The notes below the pieces were generated by a model. It did no database searches. It was not told the DNA's origin and worked only from the letters and a program-made list of their open reading frames with translations. The translations under genes and the position numbers were made by a program. A stretch of 47,708 bases of DNA, filler included, from Jimgerdemannia flammicorona (Eukaryota), in assembly GCA_003990765.1 (NCBI GenBank). It is 2 parts of 2 records of this genome, joined end to end, with 100 filler letters (N's around TTAATTAATTAA, not from the genome) between each part and the next. Parts side by side here need not be neighbours in the genome. Positions count along the whole stretch, not along the records: positions 23,906 to 47,708 come from RBNJ01001063.1; 1 more part is not named here. One strand, written 5' to 3'. This document shows positions 3,061 through 47,708 of this stretch, piece after piece. Within the stretch, counting starts at the first letter, position 1. The number at the start of each line of letters is the position of its first letter.

Positions 3061-3067
3061 ACAGAAC

Positions 3068-3901: not shown

Positions 3902-4333
3902 TTCATTTGTGATAAGTCTTTGAGCTATTTTGGGATTGGTGGTTCTTATTGGTTGCTGCTACTGCAGTTCCTTAATCCTTCTTTTATATTCTTTAGAATG
4001 CTTGTGCTATAGTCACAATGACTCACAGTTGGTCACCATTGCTCATCTTGTATGCTGTATAATCTTCTTGTGCTCCAATCTGGTGGCTTGCAAGGAAAGG
4101 CTGTCTCCAGTGCTGTTGTCATCATTCTGGGGTCACTGTTACATTATATATTTCTATTTGGATATTTGCTAATATATAGTCTATAGTCTTAGATTTCATC
4201 TGACTTAACTATATTGAAGCACTCTTATACTTCAATAAGTATAATTGTTCTCTATAATATATATTTATTATAATTAATAGTAGTAGAAAAGTTAAATCTC
4301 ACTTCCTTACTAGTATAAACTCTTTTCAACATT

Positions 4334-13479: not shown

Positions 13480-13499
13480 ACTTAGTGCCCATTGGCTAG
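13480..13499 (+). promoter_or_regulatory. Primer binding site of copy B
   Basis: ACTTAGTGCCCATTGGCTAG immediately after the LTR; decayed form of ACT-TGGTGCCCATTGGCTGG seen in copy D. Confidence 0.8.
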
Positions 13500-13599
13500 T
13501 GATTCAAGATAAATCTCCCACTTTCAAGCTAAAAAATGAACAACTCCCACAACAACTACCCTGACTACAAGAGTTACTACTGCAAGAATTCAAGATAAG

Positions 13600-16500: not shown

Positions 16501-17371
16501 ATAGAGTCTTCAGCAATAAGATTGGAAAATGGCTCTTTGTCTATGTTGATGATGTGATCATCTTCAGCAACACTGTATGGGAATATGTCAATTACATACA
16601 GTTAGCCCTCAAGAAGCTCAAAGAGTATGACCTTTATATCAAGCTCAAGAAATGCAAGTTTGCAGCCCAGGAAATCACCTACCTAGGACACCTCATCAAC
16701 CAGATCAGAATCCACACAGACCTATGAAGATTGAGACTGTTGCAGCCTACCCAAGACCCAGGACAATCACAGAAGTCTATGCCTTTCTTGGACTGGCCAG
16801 CTACTACAGAAGGTTCATCAAAGGATACTTCAGCATTGCAGCACCTATCTATGAGCTACTGAATAAGGAAACCAAATTTGAATGGATCAAGGAGTGCCAA
16901 GAAACCTTCAATGAACTCAAGACCAGGTTAACCCAAGCACCTATCCTCAGAAGACCAGATTGGAACCTAGAATTCATCCTGCAGACAGATGCGAGTACTA
17001 TAGAACTTGGAGCAGTTCTAGCTCAGAAGAAAGATGGACATAAATATGTCATCTCCTATGCAAGCTAAGGTACCTGTAGAGCAGAACAGAACTATGAGTC
17101 ATGCAAGCTTGAATACTTAGCAGTAGTTTGGGCAGTAGACAAGTTCCACTACTACCTAGCTGGAAAATACTTTACCATTCAAACAGACCATTCTGCTCTT
17201 GCCTGACTATTCCACACCCTGAACCTCAAAGAAATATATGCCAGATGGATCTACAGACTACAAGAGTATGACTGTACTATCAAGCACCACTCAGGAAAGA
17301 CCAACACCAATACTGATGCACTCTCAAGGATACCCCAAAACACCTCCATCAAGACTATTCAACATAAATAA
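13600..17371 (+). pseudogene. pol: gag-PR-dUTPase-RT-RNase H polyprotein pseudogene (copy B)
   Basis: CFRCGEEGH; protease IIDTGA; dUTPase RSSL and GGVIDSDYTGEI; RT YVDD; RH QTDAS and DALSR. Confidence 0.93.
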
Positions 17372-18597
17372 AGAGCTATACTATGGGTTAATTAGCTATC
17401 TTGGACAGCAGAAGATGCCCAACCACCTCGAACTCTGGACAATCACCTTCATCAACTAGACTTGGAAACAGTTTGAACTAGACAACACTACACTTAGAAA
17501 AGGAGGAAAGCTAATAATACCTGAATACAAGAAGTATCAAGTAATGAAGGAAGTACATGAGCAAGGACACTTAGGAGGAATCAACATATATGACAAAGCA
17601 AGAAGAACTATGCGGTGGCCCAAGATGGAAGAAGATCTGTACCAATTTGTCAAAGGGTGTGATAAGTGCCAAAAACAGAAACAAGATCAATAAGATCAGG
17701 CATCTGAGTCATCAAGAATTGAGCCTATCCCCTTCCACCACATTGCAATGGATATCATTGGACCACTACCAGTAATACTATCAGGAAACTGCTATATTAT
17801 AGTTATTATAGACCTCTTCACCAAATAGATAGAGGCAGGAGTACTACAAGAAGCCAATGCTCTCTCTATAGCTGACTTCCTGTACTGAGAAATCATCTGC
17901 CACTACAAGACACCAAAGCAAATCACAACAGACCACAGAATGGAATTTGTCAATAGATTCTATGAGATAATGTATCAGAAATACAAGATCCAGCACATCA
18001 AGACCACTGCATACCATCCTCAAGGAAATGGACAGACAGAGAGAACCAATAAGACCCTCAAGAACATCCTAGCAAAGATCTCAGAGACATATGAGAATTG
18101 GAATAACTATCTCCCAACTGCCCTCTCTGTCCTATGAGACATATAGTCACAGAGCACATACTTTACCCCAAGAGAGCTGCTCTTCAGAGAAGAAGATTCT
18201 GATGGAACCTCAGCCACAAATCTAGACCTAACTTGGAGATAGGTTGATGCAGAAATCTGAAGACTACACCAAATCAGGAAGAAGGCTGAAGATTACATCA
18301 CCAAGTTATAAGCACTGATAAGGAAGAATGTAGAAAAGAATCATAAGGCCCTAGAACCCATCTGAATCAGAGAAAAGATTCTACTGTATTGAAATATAAT
18401 AGAAACCTCATGGTTGTGAAAACTGGAGCCCAAATGAGAAAGACCCTTCTATATACAAGATATCAAAAGAACCACCTTCTGGCTTAGAAAAATCTCAGGG
18501 ACCATACTGCCTACTACAGTACATAGGAACAGACTCAAGAAGTACCACGAATCTATATAAGAGAAGCAAAATGTAATGGCCACCCATGAGATTCTAG
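17364..18597 (+). pseudogene. int: Integrase pseudogene in a separate frame (copy B)
   Basis: (M)NKELYYGL..., HEQGHLG..CDKC, IAMDIIGP, TDHRMEF, GQTERTN, KLEPK(W). Confidence 0.9.
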
Positions 18598-18924
18598 TCC
18601 ATGAATCGTAACAGCATGTCCTATGACCAGCAGGCTATCTGTCTGGACCATTCTCTAAGAGATATAGTATTGGCAACTACTCATCCATGAGACTTTTGAA
18701 GTCAGAGGAGTTCAAACTGTCAACTGATTGGTCAAGATCAGAATCAGGCCCTTGCTCTATATAAAGGGAGCAACCCTTCACCATCATGCCAAAATACAAA
18801 GGGAAGACACCAGTTCATAAACACCACTTTTCGACCCCTTGCCAGAGATTATGGGATCAGCAAATTTTTCAGGACTGGACCAATAAATAAGGATGCTCAA
18901 GAAGATTCTTATTCAGAAGGAAGA

Positions 18925-20446
18925 TGTAACAGTGACCCCAGAATGATGACATCAGTACAGGAGACAGCCTTTCCTTATAAGCCACCAGATTGGAGTACAA
19001 GGATATCATACAGCATATAAGATGAGCAATGATGACCAACTGTGAGTCATTGCAACCACAGTACAAGCATCCTGAAGAATATAAAAGAAGGATCAAGGAA
19101 CTGCAGTAGCAGCAACCAACAAGACCCACCAATCCCAAAATAGCTCAAAGACTTACCACAAATGAAATACCTGCTGCTTGCCAAACCTCAAGGTCAAGAA
19201 ACCACCAAGGTACCTCAGTTGAAGAAAGGATATTCCAAGACATCAGGAGAGCTATGAGGACCTGCTCAAGAAGGACTCCTAGTGTTGACCTAGGTATTGC
19301 AGATTCTTATCATTATATCCTCTACTGCTATGAAATAGAAACAAGAATCACCATTGCTACCAAATGTCTCCAAATGTGGCAGGAGTACAAAATAGGAAAC
19401 CTTCTCTGCCAGGAGTTCCTACAGGCTAGCCCTCAAGAGCTACAAGATGCCACTCTCATGGATATATGCAAGACAAGAATGGCTAAGAAGATCCATCAGA
19501 TCTTCAGGCATGCACTATAGTTGATCTTTAACTTAAAGTATATTAGAGTCTCAGATTTCAGAGATCTATTATCCTGCCATATCAATGCACTAGAAGCCAG
19601 GGTGGCTATAGAAGCCCAGTCCACTATCACCCTCAACAGCAATGAAGTAGAAGACTTCTGGCATCCCATCCTTCAGGATAACCCAGACCAATTCCTACAA
19701 GGATTGATCTCAGTATTCTAAGGCCCAAGTATTCAGGTTAGACCTCCCTAAGACTCCACATTTGTTCCTTATTTTGTGGAAAAGAACCTCATAGATTGGA
19801 GAGCCCCTGATTTCCCTGCTGAACATGATGATGTCATCAGCGATGATGTCATCCTGCATAACATCGAAGCACATAAAAATGATAAATTCATGGACCTCAT
19901 TTCCTTCAAAGATATCCTGACCTCTGATGATGAGGATGAAGCCCCTATGGTCCTGAACTTTCTGCTCTAAGTTCTTTGTTACACTGAATAATGCCAGCAC
20001 CAGTATTTTGATATAACACTGGATAATGCCAGCACTGGTATTCTGAGGTGATGCAAAATTATTCCAGCACCAGTATTCTGATGTGACACTGAATTATACC
20101 AGTATTCTGAACCTGTACAACCATCAGTGCTGACCCTGGAACTTAGTAGTTTTAGTTATTGGAATTTATATTTAGCTTTATATCTTAGCAACCATTGAAT
20201 TATATTTTGTATAAATATCTCTCTTATTTTCTCTGAAATAAAGTCAGTTCCAGTTCACTTACACATACTTCCTTGCAAGCAATCTAAGAGATAACAAGAT
20301 AGTTAAAGATAAGAAGTTTGAGGACTATAAGACCTTAGGAAGGTACTCCAATAAGAACTTGCTTATAACAAACTTGAGTTAGTCTAAGAGATATACCTTG
20401 AAGAGAATCTGGTATATTTGAAGGACTCAGTGACCACTACATGACA
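18925..20446 (+). repeat. 3' LTR of copy B
   Basis: TGTAACAG...ACATGACA after the PPT. Confidence 0.95.
19167..19970 (+). pseudogene. ORF-X in 3' LTR of copy B (267 codons, no indels)
   Basis: ORFs 19254-19520, 19521-19721 and 19776-19970 are all in one frame. Confidence 0.8.
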
Positions 20447-23905: not shown

Positions 23906-24732
23906 AAGAGAAGGAAGAAGGCCCAGCGGGAGCCAAGGGAGCGAACCCAGAGCCAGTGTCAAAGTGAACGGAAGACATGTGGAAGAGCATGTATAAGGGG
24001 GACGAACAAAGAACGTAACTGAAAATATATCAGCCATTTATTGCCACGTAAAAACGCGGTCCTTATATACAAAATACGACATCCCAAAAGGGAGGACGCG
24101 CCACAACTCGGGGCGAACCGAATTAGGAACCACATGACCGCCAGAGATAAGCAGAGATAAAGGGGGAGCCAATCCCAGTTGCAGGATAAAAATCACAAAC
24201 AAACACAAACAAAACAAATCCAAATCAAGATTAAAAAACATCCTTGCCCCCTCCGGGGTCTCGCGCTCACTCTGGGGTCTCGGCCTTACTCCGCTCCCCT
24301 CCGCTGCCTTCGGTCCCTCGCTTCACTCGGGCTCGCTGTGGCTCGCTCCGTTTCGGCCTCACCCCTCGCTCACGCTCACCCCTCCGGGGTCTGTGGATGT
24401 TTTTTAATCTCGATTTGGATTTGTTTTGTTTGTGTTTGTTTGTGATTTTTATCCTGCAACTGGGATTGGCTCCCCCTTTATCTCTGCTTATCTCTGGCAG
24501 TCATGTGGTTCCTAATTCGGTTCACCCCGAGTTGTGGCGCATCCTTCCTTTTGGGACATCATATTTTGTATATAAGGACCACGTTTTTACATAGCAATAA
24601 ACGGCTGATGCATTTTCGGTTACATTCTTTGTTCATCCCCCTTATACACGCTCTTCCACATGTCTTCTGTTCGCTTTGACACTGGCTCTGGGTTTGCTCC
24701 CTTGGCTCCCGCTGGGCCTTCTTCCTCCTCTC
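23906..24732. mobile_element. Foldback / long-TIR non-autonomous DNA element; arms 23906-24243 and 24395-24732
   Basis: Arms are reverse complements that differ mostly by transitions; GC-rich ~150-bp spacer; left end abuts the gap. Confidence 0.75.
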
Positions 24733-24984: not shown

Positions 24985-25448
24985 TATAATATGTATAGTA
25001 GATACTTAATCTTAGAAGTATGTCAGATTTCTGTATCTTGAAAACTTGATCTTCTTTAACTCTATAGAGTTCTCAGAATATAAGAGTAGATAAGTTCAAA
25101 GTATATCTATCTACAGGCTTACTAGTTCCTTTGTTTTTTCTTTACTTTAAACTATTTTGATCTGAGGTTTATTTACTCTAAAACTAGGAATATTTATATA
25201 AGTTTGCTAGCTATAATGTGGCTAAGTTATGAGTCACTTTTCATAAGTATTAATCCTTGATATTTTTTAAATCTTTGATGATTATTAAGACTTTAACATC
25301 TGTGAATTTTTGACATTTGTGAAGAGTTTAACATTTATGAAATAACTGCTATTTGTAAGACTATACTATATCAGAAATTGGGTTCAGATACTATAATCAA
25401 ATGTCTAATTCCTCTAATTCTTATTCCTAATTCAGATTAACTATTACA
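24985..25448 (-). repeat. Solo LTR related to family 2, TSD ATAT
   Basis: Reverse complement matches both ends of the D LTR (e.g. GTCAGATTTCTGTATCTTGAAAACTTGA); ATAT at 24981-24984 and 25449-25452. Confidence 0.75.
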
Positions 25449-25468
25449 ATATATACTATAATATAAAT

Positions 25469-27604
25469 TGTAACAGTGACCCCAGAATGATAACATCAGC
25501 ACAGGAGACAGTCTTTCCTTGCAAGTTACCAGATTAGAGTATAAAAAGATTATATAGTATACAAGATGAGCAATAATGACCAACTGTGAGTCATTATGAC
25601 TACAGTATAATATCTTGAGGAATATAAAAGAAGGATCAAAGAACCACAATAGCAGCAACCAACAAGACTTACTAATCTCAAAATACATAGCTCAAAGACT
25701 TACTATAAACAAAATGCCTGCTGCTTGCCAAACCTCAAGGTCAAGGAACTACTAAGGTATCTCAGTTGAAGAAAGGATGTTCCAAGACATCAGAAGATGA
25801 GAATCTACTCAAGAAGGACTCCTAGTATTAACCAGGGTACTAGTGACCCTTATCACTATATCCTCTACTACCATGAAATGGAAACAAGAATCACCATTGC
25901 TACCAAATGTCTCCAAATGTGGCAGAAGTATGAAATAGGAAACCTCTTCTGTTGGGAGTTTCTACAGGCCAGCACTCAAGAGCTACAAGATATGAACCAC
26001 CTTCATAGATATATGTGAAATAAGAACAGTTAAGAAGATCCATCAGATCTTCAGATATGTACCATAATCAATCTCCAACTTGGAGTATGTTAGAGTCTCA
26101 GATTTCAGAAACCTGTCATCCTGCCATATCAATGCACTAGAAGCCAGGGTGACTACAGAAGCCCAGTCCACTATCACTCTCAATAGTGATGAAGTAGAAG
26201 ACTTTTGATATTCCATCCTTCAGAATAACTCAGACCAATTTCTATAAGGATTGATCTCAGTATTCCAAGGTCCAAGTATCCAGGTTAGACCCCTATAAGA
26301 TCCCACATTTGTCTCTTATTTTGTGGAAGAGAATCTCATAGATTGGAGAGCCCCTGACCTCCCCACCACTGAACATAATGATATCATTGGCAATGATATC
26401 ATCCTATGCAATATCAAAGCATGCGAAATGCATAAAGATAAATTCACAGACCTCATCTCTTTCAAAGACATCCTGACCTCTGATGATGAAGATAAAGCCC
26501 CCATGATCCTGAACATTCTGCTCTAAGTTTCTTGTTATACTGGATAATACCAACACTGGTATTCTGAGATACATAACACTGGATAGTACTCCAAATGAGT
26601 CAATCCAGATAGGATTCGGATGGATTCAAATTCCATCTGGATCAACTCAAATTGGATTCAAATCCCATCTGGATCAACTCAGATTGGATTCGAATCCCAT
26701 CTGGATGGATTCGAATCAACCATTGTTTTGATTTCCAAATTGGACAATTAAATGTTTACATCAATAACTCGATGAATAATCATCTAAATTTGATGATCTT
26801 GGTGTCATTTGAAAGCCCTTAATAAGGTCTTTCTAATGATATCAAGAACATTAACATCGGATTACGTGTTGCTGAGATATTAAGGAAAACAATCTATTTG
26901 ACGAAATTTCCAAAATCGGCGATTCAGACAGTTTCCTTCATAACTCAGCAACGCATGATCCGATTTAAATATTCTTAATATTATTAGATAGGCCTTATTA
27001 AGGGCTTTCAAATGACATCAAGATCATCAAATTTGGATGATTATTCATTGAGTTATTGATGTAAACATTTAATTATCTAATTTGGAAATCAAAACAATGG
27101 TTGATTTGAATCCATCCAGATGGGATTCAATCCAAATCAATCCGAATCCAATCTGGATTAAATTGACTCATTAGGAGCACTAATACTGGATAATGCCAGT
27201 ACTGGTATTCTGATGTAATACTGAATTATACCAGCATTCTGAACCTGTACAACTATTAGTGCCGACTCTGGAACTTAGTAGTTTTTCCTGACCTGGTATT
27301 TTATTTTAATTATTGGAATTTATATTTAGCTTTATATCTTAGCAACCATTGAATTATATTTTATATAAACACTCCTCTTATTTCCTCTGAAATAAAGTCA
27401 GTTCCTCTCAGTACAATATATACACTTCCTTATAAGTAATCTAAGAGATAACAAGATAGTTTAAAGATAAGAAGTTTGAGGACTATAAGATCTTAGGAAG
27501 GCACTTCAATAAGAACTTGCTTATAACAAACTTGAGTTAGTCTAAGAGATATACTTTGAAGAGAATCTGGCATATTTGAAGAACTCAGCAACCACTATGT
27601 AACA
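25469..27604 (+). repeat. 5' LTR of copy C (contains ORF-X 25714-26526 and a MITE insertion)
   Basis: TGTAACAG...ATGTAACA followed by a decayed PBS. Confidence 0.92.
26584..27182. mobile_element. hAT-type MITE, 599 bp, almost wholly palindromic
   Basis: TIRs TAGTACTCCAAATGAGTCAAT / ATTGACTCATTAGGAGCACTA; 8-bp TSD ACACTGGA (26576-26583) / ATACTGGA (27183-27190); absent from the other four family 1 LTRs. Confidence 0.85.
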
Positions 27605-27723
27605 ACTTAGTGTCTATTGACTGATGATTGAAGATAAATCTCTCACTTTTAAGCTGAAAAACAAACAATCCTACAACAACTACCCTGACTACAAGAGTCA
27701 CCTCTGTAAGAATTCAAGACAAG

Positions 27724-30164
27724 ATAGAAATATGTCCCCCCACATTCTATGGATATACTACTAAAGAGTCAATTCTGACCTTCATTGATGACTTTGAACA
27801 ATTTGCCATCATATGAGCTCTTAGTGTAGATATACAATTGGCCCTTCTACCAGTCAGCCTCAGAGGACCTGTCAGAGATAAGTTCAATATAGCTACTATT
27901 GCTGATGCTGGTACAGCCAAACTTGCCAACATGAAGGCCTTCCTCAGAACAATATATTATACTGAAGAGATCAAGCAAGCTCTCAAGGATCAACTCAATA
28001 TTATCTGCCAGAGACTTAGTGAAGATCCCAACTCATTCTATATCTGAATCTATTACCAGATTGTCTTGGCTGGCTATAATGATACCCTTAAGGAACAAAT
28101 AGTAGATTCAATCTTTCTCAAAGGAGTTTACTCTGAAATTGCCCTAGCAATCTGGTCTACCCCAGCTGCACTAACCCTTGATCAGAAAGTGGTCTTTGTA
28201 TAGAGATATTGGACTGCCAGACACTCTGCTGAACACTTAATAGAGAAAATAACTAGCATCAAGATAGAGCCATCAAAGCCAACTGGTATCATACCTACTA
28301 TAGTTATAAACAGACAACCAACCCCACCTATCCCCAAGGCAGCCAAAGCTGACCCAGTAGAGGAACTCACCAAGCAGTTTGCTGAGATGACTGCATATCT
28401 TAGTGATATTGTTAGAGAAGTCCAAAGCACCAACAGGAGACCAGTGCAGAGATTTACAGCTGTTACAAAAGAATGCAATATCATATGTTTCAGATGTGGA
28501 GAAGAAGGCCACTATGCAAAGAATTGCATAACTGAAACAAGATGCAAGGCCCAACCAAGCAATGCTAGCAGAACCAGAGAACAAACCAATATAGTAGTCA
28601 TTGAGGAGATTGGTGATACTGATGATGAAGAATACTATGAAGAGCTCAAATTCTACCCTGCTACTGAAGATACCAGAACCCAGTCCAAGCCCTATGACAG
28701 GAAGAGCAACAGCAAGCCAGTTGGAAGACCAAAGAAGACCCCAGCTGTCACTATTCAAAGTAAGACCCAACCCAAGGAGATTGATCAAGATATGGAGTTA
28801 GATAAAACTGTCTGCCAAATCATTGAAGACACTACTCCAGTCTCAGGAGAAAGTGAAAGCAAGAAGAAACAGAAACTGCATAAGACCAAGATCCACCAGT
28901 ATGATATCTACAAGAATCTCAAGGAACAGAAGGTCAATGCTACCTTTGGACAGCTAGCTGAAGTCCCTGCCTTCAGACAGCAGTTGAGAGTAGGACTTGC
29001 AACTACTGCTAAGAATCAAGAATACAAGATTGTAGAAGCTCACAATGTACAGGAAGAATACAAAAACTCAGATGAAGAATCTGAAGACCAGTGCAAGACA
29101 TCAGCCTATACCCTATGTCAGATCGAAGATTATATCTTTGATGCCATCATTGATATCAGTGCTAGAGAATATCTCATAAGCAAGAAGGTAATTGACCACC
29201 TAGGTTGGGACATTGAAGAGTCTATCAAGATGGTCTATATTACAGCAGATGGTATATGAGCTACCCCCCTTGGCAAAATCCAAGAAGTCCCCATCAAGAT
29301 AGGAGGAGCTACCATTCCAGTAGATGTGATTGTTACAAGTGCCACCAACTATGACATCCTCATTGGCAACCAATGGCTTCACAAGGCTAAGGCCATCATT
29401 GACCTCAATGCCCAGAAGATGCAGATCAACTATAGAGGAAGAAAGGTACAAGTCTCTATCAATGTCCACAAAGAAGTCCTACCAGATATAGAGGAAGGAG
29501 ATGAAGAGGACACAGAGGTCTTTATGTATTCAGTAAACAAAAACAAGAACAAGACACCTAAGCTCACAGATGAGCAGTAGTATAACAAGATCATTGATAG
29601 CTATATCCCTTAAGGAAGATACCCCCATGATACTAGAATGTACTGCTCTGAACACCTGAATGACTGCTGGTTCTGTATCAGTGAAGTCAGGAAAATCTGC
29701 CAACAGAAACATGAGCAAGAAGCTGCCAAAGCAAAAAGAAAAGCTGAAGATGACCAGCCCCCAGAGCTTCAGGCTGACAGTGATGATGAGGAGGAATAAG
29801 AATCAGACATCACCCTCAAGGTCAAGAAGTTTCACCCTGAAGCCAAGATCCCAGAATATAAAACTGAAGGAGCCATAGGAATAGACCTTGTCAGTATTCA
29901 AGATACTACCCTTAAACCACAGACCACCACTCTACTTGATACTGGAATTGGAGTCAAGCTGCCAGAAAATCATGCCAGAATTATCAAGATCAGGAGCAGT
30001 CTGGCCAAAAGCAAAATCTCAGTTGAAGGAGGAGTAATTGACCCTGATTACACTGGTGAGATCTTCCTCATAATCAGGAATCACAACCCCACTACCTTAT
30101 TCAAAGTCAAGAAGTATAACAGAATTAGCCATATGCTGATTCATGAAATCAAGAAGCCTAAGAT
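27724..30164 (+). pseudogene. gag: gag-PR-Cys/His domain-dUTPase pseudogene (copy C), truncated by deletion
   Basis: ORF 28387-29259 with CFRCGEEGHYAKNC; protease YDILIGNQWL; dUTPase GGVIDPDYTGEI. Confidence 0.9.
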
Positions 30165-31134
30165 GGAAGAAAACCTGTGCTAATTTGTCAAAGGGTATGA
30201 TAAGTGCCAAAAACAGAAACAAGATCAGCAAGACCAGGTATCCAGATCATCAAGAATTGAGCCTATTCCCTTCCACCACATCCCAATAGATATCATTGGG
30301 CCACTACCAGTAATACTATCAGGAAACCACTATATTATAGTTATTGTAGACCTCTTCACCAAATGGATAGAGGTAGGAGTATTACAAGAAGCCAATGCTC
30401 TCTCTATAGCTGACTTCCTGCACTGAGAAATTATCTGCCACTACAAGACACCAAGGCAAATCACAACAGACCATGGCACAGAATTTGTCAATAGATTCCA
30501 TGAGATAATATATCAGAAATACAAGATCCAGCACATCAATACTACTACATATCATCTTCAAGAAAATAGACAGATAGAGAGAACCAACAAGACCCTCAAG
30601 AACATTCTGGTAAAGATCTCAGAGACATACGAGAATTGGGATAACTACCTCCCAACTACCCTCTCTATTCTACAAGACATATGGTTACAGAGCACACACT
30701 TTACTCCAAGAGAACTGCTCTTTGGAGAAGAAGATTCTGATGGAACCTCAGCTACAAATCTAGACCTAACTTGGAGATGGATTGATGTAGAAATCCAGAG
30801 ACTACACTAAATCAGAAAGAAGACTGAAGATTATATCATCAAGTTACAAGCGCTGATAAGAAAGAATATGGAAAAGAATCACAAGATTCTAAAACTCATC
30901 TGAATTGGAGAAAAGGTCCTACTGTATCGAAATATGGTAGAAGCCTCATGGTTGTGAAAACTGGAGCCCAAATGGGAAGAACCCTTCTATATATAAGATA
31001 TCAAGAGAACTACTTTCTGGCTTAGAAAAATCTCAGGGACTATATTGCCTACCACAGTACATAGGAACAGACTCAAGAAATATCACGAACCTATACAAGA
31101 GAAGCAAAATATATGACTGCCCACAAGATTCTAG
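30157..31134 (+). pseudogene. int: Integrase remainder (copy C)
   Basis: DIIGPLP, VDLFTKWIE, TDHGTEF, KLEPKWEEPF. Confidence 0.9.
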
Positions 31135-31159
31135 TCTGCAAATTGTAACAGCATATCCC

Positions 31160-31426
31160 ATGACCAGCAGACTATCTGTCTGGACCATTCTCTAAGAGAT
31201 ACAGCACCAGCAACTACTTATCTGTGAGACTTTCAAAGTCAGAGAAGTTTGAACCATCAACTGATTGGTCAAGATCAGATCAGGCCCTTGCTCTATATGA
31301 AGGGAGTGACCCTTCACCATCATACCAAAATACAAAGGAAAGATGTCAGCTCATAAATACTACTTTTCAACCCCTTGCCAGAGGTTATGAGATTAGCAAA
31401 TTTTTCAGAACTAGACCAATAAATAA
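31160..31426 (+). pseudogene. Putative small post-integrase ORF-Y (88 codons); equivalent in copy B at 18623-18890
   Basis: ATG-to-TAA frame without indels in C. Internal stops are transition-derived, and B has TGG/CAG/TGG at three of them. Confidence 0.45.
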
Positions 31427-31428
31427 GA

Positions 31429-32514
31429 ATGCTTGAGAATATTCTTATTTAGGAGGAAGATGTAACAGTGACCCCAGAATGATAATATTAGCACAAGAGA
31501 CAGCCTTTCCTTGCAAGCCACCAGATTAGAGCACAAGAAGATTATATGGTATATAAAATGAATAATGATGACTAACTGTGAGTCATCATGACCATAGTAT
31601 AGTATCTTGAGGAATATAAAAGAAGGATCAAGGAACTGCAGTAGTAGTAACTAACAAGACCCACTAATCCCAAAATAGCTCAAAGACTTACCACAAATAA
31701 AATATCTGCTGCTCACCAAACCTCAAGGTCAAGGAACCACTAAGGTATCTCAGTTGAAGAAAGAATGTTCCAAGACATCAGAAGAGCCATGAGGACCTGC
31801 TCAAGAAGGACTCCTAGTGTCAACCTGGATACTAGTGACCCTTATCACTATATTCTCTACTGCTGTAAAATGGCAACAAGGATCACCATTGCTACTGAAT
31901 ACCTCTAAATGTGACAGGAGTACAAAATAGGAAACCTCCTCTGCCAGGAGTTCCCACAGGCCAGTACTTAAGAGCTACAAGATACCACCTCTATGGATAT
32001 ATATGAAATGAGAACAGCTAAGAAGATCCATCAGATCTTCAGGCATATATCATGGTTGATCCCCAACTTGGAGTATGTTAGAGTCTCAGATTTTAGAGAC
32101 CTGTCATCCTACTGTATCAATATACTAGAAGCCAGAGTGACTACAGAAGCTCAGTCCACTATCACTCTCAATAGTGATGAAGTAGAAGACTTCTAGCATC
32201 CTATCCTTCAGAACAATCCAGACCAATTTCTGCAAGGATTGATCTCAGTATTCCAAGACCCAAGCATCTAGGTTAGACTCCTACAAGATCCCACATTTGT
32301 CCCTTATTTTGTGAAAGAGAACCTTATAGATTGAAGAGCCCCCAACCTCCCCACCACTAAACATAATGACATTATTGGTGATGACATCATCCTGTACAAC
32401 ATTGAAGTATACAAAATGCATAAAGATGAATTTATGAACCTCATCTCCTTTGAAGACATCCTGATCTCTGATGATGAGGATGAAGTCTCCATGATCTTGA
32501 ATATTCTGCTCTAA
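31429..32514 (+). pseudogene. ORF-X of copy C, reading from an ATG upstream of the PPT into the 3' LTR (361 codons)
   Basis: Single frame from ATG 31429 through the PPT and LTR start to TAA 32512-32514; only transition-type stops. Confidence 0.65.
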
Positions 32515-32946
32515 GTTTCTTATTATACTGGATAATGTCAGCACTGGTATTCTGATGTAACACTGAATTATACCAGTATTCTGAATCTATACAACCATCA
32601 GTGCTAACCCTGGAACTTAGTAGTTTTTCCTGACCTAGCATTTTATTTTAGTTATTGGAATTTATATTTAGCTTTATATCTTAGCAACCATTGAATTATA
32701 TTTTATATAAATACTTCTCTTATTTCCTCTGAAATAAAGTTAGTTCCTCTCAGTATAATACATATACTTCCTTGTAAGCAATCTAAGAGATAACAAGATA
32801 GTTTAAAGATAAGAAGTTTGAGGACTATAAGACCTTGGGAAGATACTTCAATAAGAACTTGCTTATAACAAACTTTAGTTAGTTTAAGAGATACACCTTG
32901 AAGAGAATCTGGTATATTTGAAGGACTCAGTAACTACTATGTGACA
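31461..32946 (+). repeat. 3' LTR of copy C
   Basis: TGTAACAG...ATGTGACA. Confidence 0.95.
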
Positions 32947-33113: not shown

Positions 33114-34337
33114 ATTAATTTATAGTTATTACTAATATACTAGTCTTAAAGAAAGAAAGTAAGTTATTCAAAACTCTATATATATTATAAAAAACTCAAT
33201 AAAATAACCAAAAAGAGCCAATAGTCCTTATCATTAGCAATATCTTAGTTATACTAGAAAATAAAGCTTAATACTATATTATCTTAAATCTCTACTTAGA
33301 ATTCTATCAAATCAGACTTATTAAAGAAATTAGTAAAAGATCAATTTTTAATATCTTAATAAAATCTATATTTATCTATAAATACTATTCAGAATATATA
33401 AATAAACTTAAGAAAATTTATACTAAATAAACTATATAATTGTGAGTCTATAATATAACTATTATACTACTTAAGATTAACTAATATCAATATAAATACT
33501 TTCTTATAAATACTCTAAAGAATATATATCTAGTAAAAATAATATAAATAAGAAGCTTTACTATAGGATTATTACTTATCTGAGATAGTATAAGATATCT
33601 CAAAATCTGAAAAAAATAAATATAAATAATTATTAATAAAACTTAGAAATAATGAAGAAATATTTAAGAAAGAAAAACTACTAGTTATATCTAAATATAA
33701 AAAAGAATAAGAAATAAAGTCAGTATAGAGAAACTTGCTAAGAAGTTTACTGAAATAACTCTCTCTCTAAGAGATATAGTGAAGAAAATCAGAAGAAGAG
33801 ATTGTTGCCTAGTTCAGAAGTTTGCTACTACTATAAACAAAAAGAAAGAAATCTGCTATACTTGTGGAGAAGAAGGCCACTACTTCTATGAATGTATAAG
33901 TGAGACTAAGTATAAGACTCAGTTAAATAATGTTATTAAAAACTACAAACAGATCAATACTATTATCTTTGAAGAGATTGGAGATTCAGAGAAAGAGAAA
34001 TAATAAGAAGCTTATCTAGCCCTCATCTCTAAGAAAAATATCAATTAGAAATTCTATAAGAGGCCATTAGAAAGATCCAAGAAGAAAGTAGTAGAATATT
34101 CTATAGAAGAACAGATAGAAGTATCTATAGAAATTAAAGAAATAGATCAAGATATAGAACTTAAACAAGTAGTTGAAGATATCATCTGAGGCAATACTTT
34201 TGCTAGTAAAGGAGAAAAGGAGAAGAAGCTGTAAAATAGTAAGACCTTCAAGTATATGTAATATCTTCAAGAATCTCAGCCAGCAAAAAGTCAATGCAGC
34301 CTTTGGATAGTTAACAGAAATCTCTATCTTTAGATAG
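32947..34337 (+). pseudogene. Very AT-rich relics of a family-2-like element: RT N-terminus (to ~33400), RH/IN junction (33400-33715), gag C-terminus (33720-34337)
   Basis: Colinear with the corresponding parts of D; CYTCGEEGHYFYEC knuckle in ORF 33779-34003. Confidence 0.75.
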
Positions 34338-34813
34338 TGTGACGGTACAGCCAGATTTGGAAGAAGAAAATAGGGAATAGACACTTGATCGCACTCATTC
34401 CCAAAGTAGTATAGCATTATAGTTAGCAGTCCTCGATTTCGACATTGTCTAAATTCTTAGACATTGTCTAAATTTTAGACATTATCCAAATCAGATACCC
34501 CGATTTAGTATAGCATTTAGACATTGTCCAAATGTTTTGACAAAGTCCAAATGACTCATTTATTACTTAGCCACCCTCTCATAGCTAGCAAACTTGTATA
34601 AATAACCCAGTATCTTCGAGTGAATAAACCTCAGATTGAAATAGTTCAAAGCAAAGAGATAGCAAAGGAACTAGTAAGTCTGTGGGCAGATACACTTCAA
34701 ACTCACCCACCCTCCCCTGCCACTTCAAGAGACTCTGCGAGAGTCAGAACAGTCAAGTTTTCAAGATACAGAAATCTGACGTACTTTCAAGAGTAAGTGT
34801 CTGCTATGTTACA
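34338..34813 (+). repeat. 5' LTR of D
   Basis: TGTGACGG...ATGTTACA; matches 40595-41070. Confidence 0.96.
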
Positions 34814-34816
34814 ACT

Positions 34817-34833
34817 TGGTGCCCATTGGCTGG
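34817..34833 (+). promoter_or_regulatory. tRNA primer binding site TGGTGCCCATTGGCTGG
   Basis: 3 nt after the LTR, starts TGG (complement of CCA); isoacceptor not identified. Confidence 0.85.
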
Positions 34834-34927
34834 TAATTCAAGACGAATCCCTCACTTTCAAGCTGAACAACGAACAACCGCCACTATCCGAATAACCATA
34901 CAAACCGAGCCCCAATACCTAGACAAG

Positions 34928-37900
34928 ATGGATATGAGACTGCCAGTATTCCATGGATATACCTCAGATGAATTGATCATCACCTTCATTGATGATTTCG
35001 AGCAGTATGCTGCCGTAAGGACTCTGACAGCAGCACAGCAAGTAGCCCTCATGCCCTTCAGCCTATGAGGCCCTGCCAGAGCAGCATTCACAGCCGCAAC
35101 CTATGCAGGAAATGATGCTGATGCCATACTGATGGCATAGAAGATCTGGCTCTGAAACACATATTACACAGACGAGATCAAGCAAGCCCTGAAGGATCAG
35201 CTCAATACAACATGCCAAGGAATGAGCAAGGATCCAAACACATTCTATACCAGAATTCGATATCAGATAATCCTTGCAGATTATGCTGCTGCTACCCGAG
35301 ATCAAGTAGCTAAAGCAACCTTCATGAAAGGAGTCTATCCAGAAATAGCCATGGCTATCTGCTCATCACCAGTGATTCTAGATCTGCTACAGAGGGTCAC
35401 CTATGCTCAGCGATACTGGATAGCCAGACACCCACAAGACCATATAATGGAGAGAGTTACAGGAGTCAGAATCGAGGCACCCAAGGCAACCAGTGTGATC
35501 TCCACCACAATGATCAATCGAAACACACCTCAGCCAAAAGCTACCAAGCAGCAAAAGAACAGCAACCCTATGGAGGAACTTGCCAAAAGGTTTGCTGAAA
35601 TGACTGCCCACCTGGGAGATGTGGTAAAGGAAATCTGAGGAAGAGATCGCCACCCTGTTCAGAAGTTTACCGCCACCTCAGACAAGAAGAAAGGTACCTG
35701 CTACAGCTGCGGAGAAGAAGGCCACTACTCCTATGAATGTATGAGTGAAACCAAATGCAAGGCTCAACCAAGCAATGCTACATGAAACAAGGAGCAGGCC
35801 AATATAATTACCTTTGAGGAGATCGGAGATTCTGACGAAGAAGAATGGGAGGCCTATCCTGCTCAGACCACCAAGAAGGATGTTCACAAAGAACCCTACA
35901 AGAGACCGCCAGGAAGACCCAAGAAGAACCCAGTGGAAAAGCAGATGGAAACTGCCACAGAAAGTCAAGCCGAAGAGATGGACCAGGATATCGAGCTGGA
36001 GCAAGTAGTTCAAGATATCATCTGAGGAACCACTCCAGCCAGTAAAGGAGAAAAAGGAAAGAAGCTTTGCAAGACCAAGACCTTCAAGTATGATATCTTC
36101 AAGGATCTCAGTCAACAAAAGGTCAATACAACCTTTGGTCAGCTTGCAGAAATCCCAACATTCAGACAGCAAATGAGGTTTGGACTAGCCGAAATAACCA
36201 AGGAACAAGGATGGAAGATAACCGAGGCCAATAATGTTCAAGAGGACTCAGGAGAAGAAAGTGAGGACAATCGCAAAACCTCTGCTTATGCAACATACCA
36301 AATTGAGGATTGAGTCTTCGAGGCCATCATTGATACAGGAGCAGGAGGATGTCTCCTCAGTAAGAAAGCAGCAGACCGCCTAGGCTGGGATGTGGAAGAA
36401 GCAACTAAGCTAGTATTCGTCACAGCCGATGGCACAAGAGCCACACCTCTGGGAAAGATCTGAGATGTTCCCATCAAGATCAGAGGAGCAACAATCCCAG
36501 TGGATGTAATCATAACCAATGCCACCAACTATGACATCCTCATCGGCAATCAATGGCTTCACAAAGCCAAAGCGGTAATTGATCTTAATGCCCAGAAGAT
36601 GCAAATCACCTACAGGGGACAGAAGATACGAATTCCCATCAACGTCAACAAAGGAGTCCTGCCCGATATGGAGGAAGAAGAGAGCGAGCAAGAGGAAGCT
36701 TATATGGTGACTACCACAAAGAAGAAGAAAGTTGGATGGATGAGTGAAGAAGAATGGTGCAAGAAGATCGCAGAAGGCTACACCCCACAAGGAGTCTGTC
36801 CTCATGGAATCAAGATGTACTATATGGAGCATATCAATGATTGCTACCAGTGCACCATCGGAACCAGGAAGATCTACCAGGAAAGAAGCCAGAAAGCTCT
36901 CAAAAAACAGACCATGGAAGAAGAGAAGGAGGAAGATGATGAACCACCAGCCCTCCTAGAGGGCAGTGATGATGAAGAAGAAATCAAGGTCAAGATTTGA
37001 AAGATCCACCCTGACGCAGTCTTGCCAGAATACAAGTCAGAAAATACAGCCAGAATGGACATCACTACAGTAGAAGAAACTGTACTCGAACCCCAGACAA
37101 CCACCCTACTCGCAACTGGACTGGAGATGACCATCCCAAAGGATCATGTCGGGATTCTCAAGACAAGAAGCAGCCTAGCTAGAAGCGAAATCACAATTGA
37201 AGGAGGAGTCATTGATTCAGACTATACTGGAGAAATTCTACTCATTGCTAGGAACCACAATCCTACAATTCCATTCCCAGTCAAGAAGAAGGACCGATTG
37301 GCACAGATATTGATCTTCCCAATCATACAGCCAAGGATCATAGAAGTCAAGAATCTGGAGGAAACGAAAAGAGGAAAGAAAGGATTCGGATCCACAGGAA
37401 GAGGAGTATTCGCCAGCACCAAGATCACTGAACTCAAGCATAAGAAGGAGGAAAACACAAGCAAGCACAGTTACACAATTGGAGATGAATTCCCACTCAA
37501 GGAGGAACTCAAGAAAATACTCCACAAATTCAAGGATGTCCTTGCCACGGATTTCAAGGATATCAAGAGAAAGACCCCACACTACTATCACGAAGTAGAT
37601 ACTGGAGACACCAAACCAATTTATCAGAAAGCAAGACCTGTCCCACCAGCCTACCAAGAATGGCTCAGAGAAGAAATCAAACAGATGGAAGAAGCCGGTA
37701 TCATCAAAGAAGCCAGCAGCCCCTGGTCTTCACCAGTTGTACTAGCCCCGAAAAAAGGAAGCAAACCTGGAAAATTTGCCCCAAGACTCTGTGTCAACTA
37801 CAGAAAGCTCAATGCAGTCACCAAGAAGGATCGCCAACCACTGCCGCTCATCAGTGACATCCTTATAACACTAGGAGACGAAGCACAGTACTACAGCACC

Positions 37901-38920: not shown

Positions 38921-40103
38921 GGAGCTCTACTACGGAATTATCACATATCTGGGACAGTGAAAGATGCCCCAACATCTGGAAGAATGGACACAAACGATTA
39001 TCAACAGGACATGGAAACAATTTGAAACCGACAGAGAAACACTGAAGAAAGGAAAACTACTAGTCATACCAGAACACAAGAAGGAGCAAGCAATGAAATT
39101 GGTACACGAACTTGGCCATCTAGGAGGAACAAATACATATGACAAGGCAAGGAGAACAATATGGTGGCCAGGGATAGAGGAAGATATCAGACAATTCGTC
39201 AAGACCTGTGACAAATGCCAGAAACAGAAACAAGACCAACGAAATCAAGCCCCAGGATCAGCACACATAGAACCAGTACCATTTGCCCACATTGCAATAG
39301 ATGTAATCAGCCCCCTACCCTTGACTCTGACTGGCAACCGATACATCATTGTCATCGTAGACCTTTTTACGAAATGGATAGAAGCAGGACCCCTTATGGA
39401 AGCCAATGCATAGTCAATCACTGATTTCTTCCACAAGGAAATCATCTGCCGGTTCAAGACCCCAACACAAGTAACTACAGATAGAGGAACCGAATTCGTG
39501 AACCAGTTCTTCGAGGTTCTCTACAAGAAGTACAAGATCCAGCACATTCAGACCACAGCCTATCACCTTCAAGGAAATGGACAAGAAGAAAGGACCAATA
39601 AGACCCTCAAGAATGTTATCACCAAGATCTGTGATAACTACGAGAACTGAGATCACTATCTGCTAATAGCACTATCTGCTCTCTGGGATATCCGATCACA
39701 AAGCACCCACTTTACCCCTCGAGAAATGCTGTTCAGAGAAGAATGTTCTCAAGGAACCCTATCATCCAATGGAGATACTGTATGGAAACATATGGACATG
39801 GAAATACGGAGACTACACCAAATCAGGAAGAAGGCTGAGGATTACATAATGAAGGCGCAGACACTACAACGGAGGAATGCGGAAAAGACCCACAAACCCT
39901 TGGAGATCATCAAGATAGGAGACAAAGTTCTGGTGTATCGGAATATGGTTGAAGCTTCATGGTCACGAAAACTGGAGCCCAAGTGGGAAGGACCTTACCT
40001 TGTGCAAGATATAAAAGGGACCACCTTTTGGCTATGAAAACCCTCAGGCACAATAATCCCCACTACCATTCACCAAAACCAACTCAAGAAATATCATAGC
40101 TAG
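38913..40103 (+). pseudogene. int: Integrase as a separate ORF (HHCC, DDE, GPY/F; no chromodomain)
   Basis: ATG 38913 MNKELYYGII; HELGH..CDKC; IAIDV; TDRGTEF; GQEERTN; KWEGPY. The true stop may be 40103 or 40139. Confidence 0.92.
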
Positions 40104-40119
40104 TAACAAAAGTACCGCG

Positions 40120-40557
40120 ATGGCACTCAAGATCACTAGTGCTGCCCAAAGAGCCATTGAAAGACAATGGCACACCACCGAGCCTCCGACCATAGAGCCA
40201 TTCTATGAGGATATTCAGAGTATTGTGCAGACTCATCTCTCTCGGATCTCATGCTTTAGAGACTATCAATATCGCGCAGAATTCCAAGAGTACTTCAAGC
40301 TTGGACAGGTGCTCAATCAGGATCCATCAAAGACCAAGGAAGACTGGATTGCCGAGTGTCAACTCTCTCACTCACAGATCACTATTGCTAAAAGGATCCA
40401 CAAGTTATTCCGAGAAGATGAAGCAGCGATAGACCACCTTAGAGGAGTAACCCCTACCGACTTCGAGAAAGTGAGGAGACATCATTGGGAAACAGTTATG
40501 CAGCAAATCGCACATTACAAGACCATACAGACCATTGAAGCCTGGGAGTTTGAATAG
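40120..40557 (+). CDS. Intact 145-aa accessory protein ORF-X between integrase and PPT; function unknown
   Basis: ATG-to-TAG ORF without stops; aligns by eye with the LTR ORFs of family 1 and element E. Confidence 0.8.
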   Translation: MALKITSAAQRAIERQWHTTEPPTIEPFYEDIQSIVQTHLSRISCFRDYQYRAEFQEYFKLGQVLNQDPSKTKEDWIAECQLSHSQITIAKRIHKLFREDEAAIDHLRGVTPTDFEKVRRHHWETVMQQIAHYKTIQTIEAWEFE

Positions 40558-40594: not shown

Positions 40595-41070
40595 TGTGAC
40601 AGTACAGCCAGATTTGGAAGAAGGAAATAGGGAATAGACACTTGATCGCACCCATTCCCAAAGTAGTATAGCATTATAGTTAGCAGTCCTCGATTTTGAC
40701 ATTGTCTAATTTCTTGGACATTGTCTAAATTTTAGACATTATCCAAATCGAATACTCCGATTCAGTACAGCATTTAGACATTGTCCAAATGTTTCGACAA
40801 AGTCCAAATGACTCATTTATTACTTAGCCACCCTCTCATAGCTAGCAAAACTTGTATAAATAACCCAGTATCTTCGAGTGAATAAACCTCAGATCGAAAT
40901 AGTTCAAAGCAAAGAGATAGCAAAGGAACTAGTAAGCCTGCGGGCAGATATACTTCGAACTCACCCACCCTCCCCTGCCACTTCAAGAGACTCTGCGAGA
41001 GTCAGAACAGTCAAGTTTCAAGATACAGAAATCCAATGTACTTTCAAGAGTAAGCGTCCGCTATGTTACA
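40595..41070 (+). repeat. 3' LTR of D
   Basis: TGTGACAG...ATGTTACA. Confidence 0.96.
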
Positions 41071-45205: not shown

Positions 45206-46513
45206 ACTTAGTCTAGACTAACCAGAGATATTGTAGAACTCCAGAAAGCCTCAGTAATGAATACCAATCTTATCAAGTTCTTCAGGACCTCTGATATCTG
45301 AAAAAATTGAAATGATATAGAGAAGATTAGTATGGCCCTTGTACAAAGATGACACTATCTTCCTGAGATGAATTATAAATATCAATCTTGTAACAAAGTA
45401 AGCTTAATTTTCTGATACATTTCTAGTACTTCAGTATATAATATAATATATATATATCTGATATTTATGTTAATATTTACTGTTATATTTCATTATTTAT
45501 AGATCAACTATATAGTTAATAATTGGTATCAAGACATATTAGAGAAATATCAAAGCTAATACAATACTTGCAGGATGATACTCTATAGAAGCAGATTGTA
45601 TAACAAATTCACAACTTTATCTTCTTGGAAAATATATGGCCAAATGTTAGCATGCAGAAAACCTTTATATTTTTAATATCTCATAATAGTGATAAAAGTG
45701 ATCTGACTTCTATAGTAAGTATATTTCAGCAGAGTTTGGACTTATTTATAATCTCAATTAAACATAGTCCCAACAAATAAATATGATTTTTTTTCTTTCT
45801 TTCTTTCACTATAAATTAAAGTTAAGAAACATTGTATCTACTTATTGAGCATAGTATTTACTAATAAATCTTCAGTTTCCAAACACTATATCTCTCAAAG
45901 ATATGAAAGATCTTAAACAGAGGATATTACAGCCTCTTGTCCAAATGTCTGATTCATTTATATACTACTAATATATAATCTGAATGAAGAAGGAGATATT
46001 AGACATGATGAGAATAGATATTTGATTATTCTGACACCTGTACAGCAACCTTCTACTCTCTATATATTATTTCAGTTTTTTAGTTATTGTGGTTTGGAGA
46101 AAAGCCTCAATTTAAGAATATGCTATTAAATATTATAGTACTCTAGCTTTTATTTATCTGTAGTCTAGTGAGTTATTTTTATTTTATTTTATTTTTTAAT
46201 TATATATTAGATATTAATTTTATTATATATATATATATAGTTGAATTATCTATGCACTGATGGACTAATAAATAAGTTTGAAGATAGAATGGAATTATCT
46301 CAGTATTATAAGTAGATTAGACAAATTCAAAATATGGTCAATAAGAAAAAATTGAATTCTACAGCTCTACAGAAGTATGTAGTTACAGTATCTGGAATAA
46401 ATTCAAGAATCAATAACACTCCTGATAAGAATTTGAAACCAGACATTACAGATACTCTAGAAAACTAGTATCCCTTTCTCTACTACCTTACTAGTCACAA
46501 TGGTTTGATAGGC

Positions 46514-47430
46514 CATGGGCATGGGCAACACAGACAATATAGGCAATATGGACAACACAGACAACATGGGTGAGCAAGATAGGTAAGACAGGCAAGATGG
46601 GCAAGATGGGTAAGATGGGCAAGACAGGCAAGATGGCAAGATGGGTGACATGGGCAAGACAGGTAGATGGCAAGACAGGTAATATGGGCAAAATGGGCAA
46701 CACAGGCAACATGGACAATATAGGCAATATGGGCAATATAGGCAATATGGGCAAAATGGGCAACTTAGGCAACATGGGCAATATGAGCAACATGGGCAAT
46801 ATGGGCAGGCAAGATGGGCAAGATGGGCAAGATAGCAAGATGACAAAACAGGCAATATAGGTAAGACAGGTAAGACAGGCAAGACAGATAAGATAGCAAG
46901 ATGGTAAGATAGGTGACATGGATAAGATGGATAGACAGCAAGACAGGCAATATGGGCAAAATGGTCAAAATGGGCAAAACAGGCAAAATGGGCAACATGT
47001 ACAATATGGACAACATGGGCAGACAACATGGACAATATAGGTAACATGGGCAATCCAGGCAATATGGGCAATATGGGTAATACAGATAACATGGGTGGGC
47101 AACATGGGCAATATGGGCAATATGGACAACATGGACAATATGGGAAACATGGGCAATATGAGTGGGCAAGATGGGCAAGATAGACAAGATAGCAAGATGG
47201 GTGACATGGGCAAGATAGATAGATAGTAAGACAGGCAATATGGGCAAGATGGGCAAAATGGGCAAAACAGGCAACACAGGCAACACAGGCAACATGGGCA
47301 ATATAGGCAACATGGGCAATATGGGCATCATAGGCAGGCAAGACAGGTAAGATGGGCAAGATGGGTAAGATGGGCAAGATAAGCAAGATGGCAAGATGGC
47401 AATATGGGCAACATGGGCAGGCAAGACAGG
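46514..47430. repeat. 9-bp-unit minisatellite (ATGGGCAAG/ATGGGCAAT/ACAGGCAAG) with a ~270-290-bp higher-order period
   Basis: Marker AAGATGGGTGACATGG recurs near 46638, 46907 and 47194. Confidence 0.88.
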
Positions 47431-47708
47431 CTAAATGAGCAAGACAGAAGGCACTAATAGGGGTAGGTCAGATGCACTAGATGCCAAGTACTTGAGGTAG
47501 TTGGGGCTCACAACCCATACCCACTAGGTGGGGCAAGCTGGGTAGAAGGATCTAGTTACTTGAGCAGTGAGGTCACAACTCACACTCTAAAGATGCAAAG
47601 CTGAGTGAGTGTAAAGGTAGGTTGAGATTGGGGTGGAATGGGGCTACTGATGTAGTATGAGGACATGTGATATATTATAGATAGTTAATAAAAAATAAAA
47701 ATAAAAAA

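Follow-up and report, generated by a model that had tools for sequence, protein, structure and literature searches.

Genes embedded in the unique 3′ region (U3) of a long terminal repeat (LTR) are regarded as a hallmark of complex retroviruses. A locus in the genome of Jimgerdemannia flammicorona raises the question of whether a Ty3/gypsy retrotransposon may also have carried a gene of this kind and, if so, on which side of the LTR boundary the gene begins. The stretch that was analysed, hereafter the window, comprises 47,708 nucleotides (nt) of GenBank assembly GCA_003990765.1, in two parts joined by 100 filler letters, and all positions are counted along this whole stretch. It is nuclear DNA of an AT-rich eukaryote (23-30% G+C outside repeats), and self-comparison reveals three elements (A, B and C) of one Ty3/gypsy family with LTRs of 1.5 kb. 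The original prediction for this locus held that the LTR frame of element C starts upstream of the 3′ LTR and crosses the polypurine tract, in the manner of lentiviral nef or of sag of mouse mammary tumour virus (MMTV). The analysis points to a different layout: the LTRs of this family probably contained a real accessory gene of about 270 codons, situated wholly inside the 1.5-kb LTR and in what appears to be U3.

The gene copies are named after the LTRs that contain them, A standing for the 5′ LTR of element A, and B5, B3, C5 and C3 for the 5′ and 3′ LTRs of elements B and C:

31702 to 32514, plus strand: LTR gene copy C3; 270 codons plus TAA, start codon now ATA, 7 internal stops
19167 to 19970, plus strand: LTR gene copy B3; 267 codons with 3 internal stops and ATA in place of the start ATG; no frameshift
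12224 to 13003, plus strand: LTR gene copy B5; intact ATG, 4 stops and three private deletions (1, 22 and 1 nt)
25714 to 26526, plus strand: LTR gene copy C5; intact ATG, 5 stops and two private 4-nt indels, one a deletion and one an insertion
3068 to 3901, minus strand: LTR gene copy A; 277 codons with an intact ATG and 4 internal stops; no frameshift

As originally predicted, all five LTRs contain one and the same frame, without net frameshift in A, B3 and C3 (834, 804 and 813 nt). It measures 265-277 codons and runs to a common terminal TAA. The way in which the frame is interrupted is informative. Its 23 stop codons (A 4, B5 4, B3 3, C5 5, C3 7) fall at 15 sites over 277 aligned codons; eight sites are found in one copy, six in two and one in three, and no site is common to four or five copies. 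All 23 are single transitions from CAA, CAG or TGG codons that other copies read at the same site, in agreement with the earlier statement that the stops lie at different, transition-prone codons. Over the aligned columns, 5-18 stop sites common to all five copies occur in each of the remaining five frames. Transitions account for 214 of the 232 substitutions confined to a single LTR, and C>T or G>A changes for 169; CpG is nearly gone. All five copies are pseudogenes, killed after insertion by C-to-T and G-to-A decay. Insertions and deletions (indels) follow a similar division: those between lineages (18, 3/15, 21, 6/15 and 9 nt) are multiples of three in five of five cases, whereas those private to a single copy (-1, -22 and -1 in B5; -4 and +4 in C5) are multiples of three in none of five. 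That the LTR contains a protein-coding gene is supported by this distribution, with no stop in more than three of the five copies and between-lineage indels in frame, together with the existence of open relatives elsewhere.

These relatives were sought with the LTR frame translated with X at stops. A protein search of a 5.8-billion set matched three open proteins, and profile searches gave five clusters among 1.84 billion representatives and eight proteins in a word-indexed set. Including cluster members and an open reading frame (ORF) on a contig termed L001, the relatives number 12, all from metagenome assemblies; eleven are proteins on contigs of 600-4848 bp, with P0008 on the contig of 4848 bp and P0010 on one of 2375 bp, and the L001 ORF lies on a 1535-bp contig that it shares with P0011. 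They measure 215-342 residues, are 28 to about 80% identical and have collinear motifs; the complete ones begin at the same first Met and the close ones end at the same C-terminal position. Three, P0003 (271 residues), the L001 ORF (291) and P0008 (342), are open along their full length. Open frames that long at 37-40% mutual identity cannot be due to chance, so the copies in the window are dead members of a real protein family. No related locus was detected in viral or prokaryote collections, and of two metagenome scans the first gave none and the second only the L001 contig. None of the 12 relatives bears a name, a Pfam domain or a named cellular homologue, nor were longer or fused forms of the family found, the last being weak evidence. 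The protein family is a small orphan one that, outside the window, is seen only on metagenome contigs. On L001, a 33-nt direct repeat (170-202 and 1481-1513; 82% identical, 1311 bp apart) flanks the intact gene.

The position of the gene within the LTR can be judged against the following features:

31461 to 32946, plus strand: 3′ LTR of C (C3), with TG...CA ends and a 4-bp target-site duplication, AAAT
25469 to 27604, plus strand: 5′ LTR of C (C5), with a foldback insertion of ~620 bp at 26567-27183, downstream of the LTR gene
18925 to 20446, plus strand: 3′ LTR of B (B3); the LTR pair of B is 89% identical
11982 to 13479, plus strand: 5′ LTR of B (B5), with target-site duplication CTAT
2515 to 4143, minus strand: 5′ LTR of A; the internal part of element A is cut off at 1492
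31451 to 31460, plus strand: polypurine tract before the C3 LTR; the B3 equivalent is 18915-18924
31429 to 31452, plus strand: upstream ATG frame, 7 codons and then TAG in C3; not part of the gene

The LTR pair of C is 85% identical, and B and C are both flanked by their 4-bp duplications (CTAT and AAAT). The frame claimed to extend back to the ATG at 31429 closes at TAG after seven codons; when C3 is read from 31429 to 32514 it contains 18 stops including the final one, 10 of them within the 91 codons before the true start. In B3, the same upstream ATG opens 17 codons that end at a TGA common to all LTRs. The gene itself starts about 240 nt inside the LTR, at a codon that is ATG in A (3901-3899), B5 (12224) and C5 (25714) and ATA in B3 (19167) and C3 (31702), and that aligns with the first Met of P0003, P0007, P0008 and the L001 ORF. 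Between the LTR start and this codon, the three forward frames hold 2, 5 and 4 stop sites common to all five copies, and a TAG 21 codons upstream of the gene start is present in every copy. The shared stops upstream and the conserved internal start indicate that the gene does not cross the polypurine tract, contrary to what had been proposed. Since it lies wholly inside the LTR, both LTRs of an element, and not the 3′ one only, would carry a complete copy. The one-base indel described between A and B on the one side and C on the other does exist.

The window also harbours an element, D, of a sister family with short LTRs, and it is here that a likely counterpart of the gene is found:

34338 to 34813 and 40595 to 41070, plus strand: LTRs of sister element D, 476 bp, 95% identical, without a homologue of the LTR gene
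40120 to 40557, plus strand: D ORF3, 145 codons, open, between the pol stop and the 3′ LTR

The internal parts of D and B are 65-70% identical, and both families have the same order of Pfam domains (zf-CCHC, RVP_2, dUTPase, RVT_1, RT_RNaseH, Integrase_H2C2, rve). The assignment to Ty3/gypsy is based on paired TG...CA LTRs with target-site duplications in B and C, a purine tract before each 3′ LTR, a conserved block after each 5′ LTR and the domain order gag (CCHC)-protease (PR)-reverse transcriptase (RT)-RNase H-integrase (IN). D ORF3 begins 16 nt past the pol stop (40101-40103) and lies just upstream of the polypurine tract, its end being separated from the 3′ LTR by 37 nt. A hidden Markov model (HMM) of the protein family, built from outside sequences only and run on the six-frame translation of the window, matched the five LTR copies and one place in D (40297-40522, E 2e-6), the next unrelated match having an E of ~6 or more. 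D ORF3 scored 25 bits against the family with HMMER and reached a probability of 87% with hhalign (E 4e-6) over 115 collinear columns, corresponding to the N-terminal two thirds of the family. On these comparisons, D ORF3 is very likely to be homologous to the LTR gene. The short version that had been ascribed to D accordingly exists, but upstream of its 3′ LTR and not inside the LTR. In D, an ORF of its own follows pol and precedes the polypurine tract, whereas the copies in A, B and C come after the tract, so that, if the homology holds, one accessory gene stands before the tract in one family and beyond it in the other; in B and C the same HMM, in six frames, found no trace of the gene in the ~330 nt between pol and the tract. 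The first ~20 nt are alike in the long and D-type LTRs, which suggests that the gene moved into or out of U3, rather than that the tract simply shifted.

The U3, R (repeat) and U5 (unique 5′) regions and both promoters were read from motifs alone, the most relevant of which are:

31615 to 31622, plus strand: TATAAAAG box (P1), 87 nt before the start codon
31579 to 31585, plus strand: TGAGTCA, 36 nt upstream of P1, present in all five LTRs
32706 to 32738, plus strand: core LTR signals downstream of the gene, TATAAATA (P2) at 32706-32713 and AATAAA at 32733-38, 19 nt apart
19977 to 20102, plus strand: 35-bp tandem repeats of B3, between the gene stop and P2, 3.6 copies

The TATAAAAG box is identical in all five LTRs (also at 3988-3981 on the minus strand, 12137, 19080 and 25623), and TGAGTCA is presumably an AP-1/Gcn4-type site. 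On the L001 contig, TATAAAAG occurs 80 nt before the ATG, together with a 16-nt leader block just before the ATG that is common to the LTRs of the window. In a blastn comparison of L001 and the window, this leader was the only aligned stretch and none of the coding DNA aligned, although the proteins are ~40% identical. Conservation of non-coding blocks as far as the distant L001 suggests that they are the promoter and leader of the gene itself. In the D LTR, TATAAATA and AATAAA recur behind a set of 19-bp repeats, here with a spacing of 18 nt, and this pair may represent the core promoter and poly(A) signal of the family and mark the U3/R boundary. Because the pair is common to the ORF-less D LTR and lies downstream of the gene, the gene would be placed in U3. 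The 35-bp tandem repeats, which in copy A amount to 3.8 copies (2924-3055), look like U3 enhancer repeats. In D, TATAAAAG is also seen at 40009-40016, within integrase C-terminal codons and 111 nt before the ATG of ORF3. A resemblance of the LTR stretch preceding the gene (e.g. 19080-19166) to the last codons of pol in another frame was an unconfirmed lead, as the DNA alignment was no better than shuffles (z 0.1-2.5, the observed score being reached by 7 to 167 of 200 shuffles).

The encoded protein is acidic overall, with an isoelectric point (pI) of 4.5-4.9, and a basic stretch (pI 12) makes up the first 45 residues of close members. The acidic C-terminus noted earlier is borne out by P0003, whose last 59 residues contain 18 D/E and 3 K/R; this tail has conserved hydrophobic motifs, DLIxF and a terminal VLNF. 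The similar tail reported in a region called E (~9843) proved to be a 9-mer standing alone in AT-rich DNA, in a stretch open for 34 codons, with no homology by tblastn or by the family HMM, and this region repeats nothing else in the window. No membrane segment was found in five family members, the maximum 19-residue Kyte-Doolittle score being 0.59-1.05. The product is predicted to be soluble, its basic N-terminal stretch being followed by a helical core of ~170 residues and then by an acidic C-terminal tail studded with hydrophobic residues. The composition of this tail is consistent with an activation domain. A reading of DLIxF as a clathrin box or LC3-interacting region (LIR) was dropped, since the required flanking positions are not conserved.

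From these features, a scheme for the expression and role of the gene can be outlined, in steps of decreasing confidence. It is an even question whether the LTR gene formed its own transcription unit, as its motifs suggest; if so, TGAGTCA and TATAAAAG, 80-87 nt before the ATG, would start an mRNA ending at the AATAAA of the same LTR, and every LTR, whether 5′, 3′ or solo, would be able to express the gene. In the genomic transcript, AATAAA would lie at or just before the transcript start and so act at the 3′ end only. The gene would be copied into both LTRs at each transposition, since the 3′ end of the RNA serves as the template for U3. More tentatively, the protein might be a nuclear regulator whose acidic tail activates the main promoter of the element, possibly via the 35-bp repeats; this guess is drawn solely from layout and composition, and a silencing antagonist or an assembly or targeting adaptor are alternative functions. 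Such a regulator and the main promoter would constitute a feedback loop like that of the spumavirus internal promoter with Tas. Still more doubtful is the full combination, in which the LTR would be a self-contained cassette of promoter, ORF and poly(A) signal encoding a regulator of the main promoter, so that the element could be termed a ‘complex retrotransposon’ with a Tas-like circuit.

Several observations weigh against a functional accessory gene of the element and must be set beside the evidence in its favour. The ratio of synonymous to nonsynonymous changes is 17:19 for fixed differences between B and C and 86:129 for post-insertion differences (Fisher p = 0.47), which gives no selection signal in the window. 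B and C each have one stop common to their two LTRs, so that the gene may already have been dead when they transposed. Neither LTR ends nor remains of pol are present on the L001 contig (1535 bp), distant members show the basic N-terminus only weakly, and the homology of D ORF3 is remote, pairwise BLASTP to P0008 giving only E 0.069. Nor is the protein recognized by resemblance to known ones: P0001 and P0002 matched no Pfam family at E up to 1, and over the 12 family members the sole Pfam match was ATG5_HBR in 3/12 (best E 0.028); no match was found in PDB sequences, and the best ESM Atlas scores (0.83 and 0.85) are at chance level. AlphaFold models are mostly helical and of low confidence (mean predicted local distance difference test, pLDDT, 35 and 45); with these, Foldseek found no match at E up to 0.001, and the best VIA-align Z was 4.6 on a low-confidence helical model. 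The codon-position bias that had been put forward as a discriminator is present (fixed B-vs-C differences 12/6/18 at positions 1/2/3), but equally so in the neutral post-insertion differences (34/21/47 and 39/27/47); position 3 is C-rich and C>T decay alone favours it, so this test is uninformative. On the side of a coding frame, by contrast, three-base periodicity resembles that of gag/pol in the element, G being 0.24-0.29 at codon position 1 vs 0.12-0.13 at position 2; its p of ~1e-5 to 1e-6 is to be read against a control that is not clean, as an AT-rich background stretch also gave p = 7e-4.

The lack of a known domain, the poor structure prediction and the missing substitution-based selection signal are what would be expected if the frame were a chance opening in a repeat and had never been a gene. 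This explanation is hardly credible at all, given the distribution of stops and indels and the base periodicity, and it is contradicted by open, diverged relatives at 28-80% identity. The one stop that B and C each share between their two LTRs, and the absence of LTR ends around L001, the sole relative with a checked context, would also suit a passenger, that is, a captured host gene or fragment with no role for the element, with B and C having moved with a dead copy. A passenger appears improbable when it is considered that the likely homologue in D occupies the classical post-pol ORF3 position, that start, stop and promoter block are conserved across ~40% protein identity, and that the 12/12 relatives are metagenomic and none has a named cellular homologue; the absence of longer or fused cellular forms adds weak evidence in the same direction.

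Two further explanations accept a gene of the element and differ in its position. A nef-like gene that crosses the polypurine tract, and of which the 3′ copy alone is complete, would start at the ATG found 32 nt before the 3′ LTR in C3 and B3, which in C3 is in phase with the gene; it is barely tenable in view of the 10 stops in the 91 codons of C3 before the true start, the stops shared by all five copies in all three forward frames and the internal Met at which the relatives start. Alternatively, P1 (TATAAAAG) could be the promoter of the genomic RNA, in which case the gene would belong to a very long R instead of U3 and would head the full-length transcript as its first ORF, a leader ‘ORF0’ preceding gag. 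P1 and the leader are indeed the conserved non-coding blocks, and in silico work on plant elements has put forward R regions of kilobase length, the R of Retrosat2 being given as 2023 bp in the available part of PMC3485330. This placement is nonetheless unlikely, as the D LTR is without the segment bearing P1 but keeps TATAAATA and AATAAA at 18-19 nt, marking the pair as core promoter and poly(A) signal, and as an RNA started at P1 would meet AATAAA ~1.1 kb from its cap, so that cleavage would be expected within the 5′ LTR. A gene of the element located in U3 remains the preferred reading.

A gene in that position invites comparison with known systems. MMTV sag is an ORF of ~300 codons situated wholly in U3 of an LTR of more than 1 kb, upstream of the TATA box; it is expressed from spliced or env-promoter transcripts, and its product is a type II membrane protein with a hydrophobic signal-anchor. 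The LTR gene is alike in that it lies wholly in the putative U3 of a long LTR, upstream of a TATA motif, and would be duplicated in both LTRs and inherited via the 3′ copy. It is unlike sag in showing no sequence similarity to Sag (no Pfam match) and no hydrophobic anchor, in belonging to a Ty3/gypsy retrotransposon and not to a betaretrovirus, and in having a candidate TATA box of its own directly upstream. The literature on an ‘LTR ORF’ mostly concerns MMTV; PMC2118998 names the ORF of the 3′ LTR. With lentiviral nef, the gene has in common that it is a 3′-terminal accessory gene overlapping U3, but nef starts before the 3′ LTR and runs over the polypurine tract, whereas the LTR gene starts ~240 nt inside the LTR; moreover, its relatives begin with Met-Pro, with no Gly at position 2 for myristoylation, and there is no Pfam match. 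Of the two likenesses originally suggested, the sag-like layout in the putative U3 can be retained and the nef-like position cannot. The spumavirus gene tas/bel1 offers a parallel by inference only, as a 3′ accessory gene with its own upstream promoter, an acidic C-terminal region in its product and a possible feedback on the LTR promoter; no homology exists, and the candidate promoter of the LTR gene lies in U3, whereas the foamy-virus internal promoter is located in env.

Closer relatives of the element provide a second set of comparisons. According to the available text of PMC2864245, PMC6431247 and PMC5408684, fungal, rotifer and planarian elements have a dUTPase placed between PR and RT, and the post-pol ORF3 of the rotifer elements Vesta, Juno and TelKA and the additional ORF of fungal elements are likewise family-specific extra genes, of varied or unassigned function, in dUTPase-bearing elements. 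The homologue in D occupies exactly this post-pol position; the gene of A, B and C differs in lying beyond the polypurine tract, inside the LTR, and nothing of the kind appears in the available text of these three sources. ORF0 of the plant elements Retrosat2, RIRE3 and RIRE8, which belong to Ty3/gypsy and have unusually long LTRs of more than 3 kb, is also an additional ORF of orphan status, as far as the available part of PMC3485330 goes, but it sits between the 5′ LTR and gag and is a different protein in a different host kingdom. Searches of open-access papers and preprints brought up no LTR retrotransposon reported to have a gene inside its LTR.

Element B was also compared with public sequence runs. 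Contigs at least 80% alike to element B fill all 30 bins in each of four public runs, and a single soil-metagenome run yielded 6488 contigs matching element B, 872 of them at 99% or more; the run data are Logan contigs, which carry no information on transcript starts, ends, strand or expression. The element family or a close relative is abundant in the sampled runs.

Other features of the elements and their surroundings were recorded in the window. A conserved block follows each 5′ LTR (34814-34835, 13480-13500 and, on the minus strand, 2514-2495) and is common to the long-LTR and short-LTR families; in D, three bases past the 5′ LTR, this block resembles a primer-binding site beginning TGG, and a self-priming primer-binding site was searched for and not found. 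Compared with the internal region of B (13480-18924), that of C (27605-31460) is missing ~1.8 kb (B 15791-17618), the RT/RNase H part, so that C is a deletion derivative unable to move on its own. The insertion in C5 (26567-27183) is a foldback resembling a miniature inverted-repeat transposable element (MITE), with 207-nt inverted arms that are 89% complementary, and is missing in the other four LTRs. The block at 1-1492, which truncates the interior of A, has 55% G+C and several ORFs of 120-240 codons on both strands, with zero Pfam matches. Fragments similar to D include a gag-region piece at 33724-34322, 70% identical to 35569-36154, and a minus-strand LTR piece at 24995-25230, ~75% identical to the D LTR. 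An inverted repeat pair (23907-24243 and 24395-24731; 337 bp, 93% identical, ~150 bp between) may be a foldback element. Towards the end of the window are a U6 spliceosomal RNA gene (45281-45384, plus strand; 70 bits vs a gathering score of 44) and, at 46457-47467, arrays of 9-bp period inside a 336-codon open frame on the minus strand, with no Pfam match.

The finding would place a conserved U3-embedded gene in a Ty3/gypsy retrotransposon. A sister family in these 47 kb has a likely homologue on the opposite side of the polypurine tract, and the gene pair is a tangible example from which the entry of accessory genes into LTRs can be traced. With 12 members among billions of predicted proteins, the protein family is an orphan one, and naturally intact members exist. 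Given a promoter belonging to the gene itself, LTRs and solo LTRs would act as protein-coding as well as regulatory units, which bears on the annotation of repeat-rich genomes. Should the cassette prove real, solo LTRs would be left behind as expressible stand-alone genes, and the pair formed by the long LTRs and D would record the movement of an accessory gene across the polypurine tract into U3.

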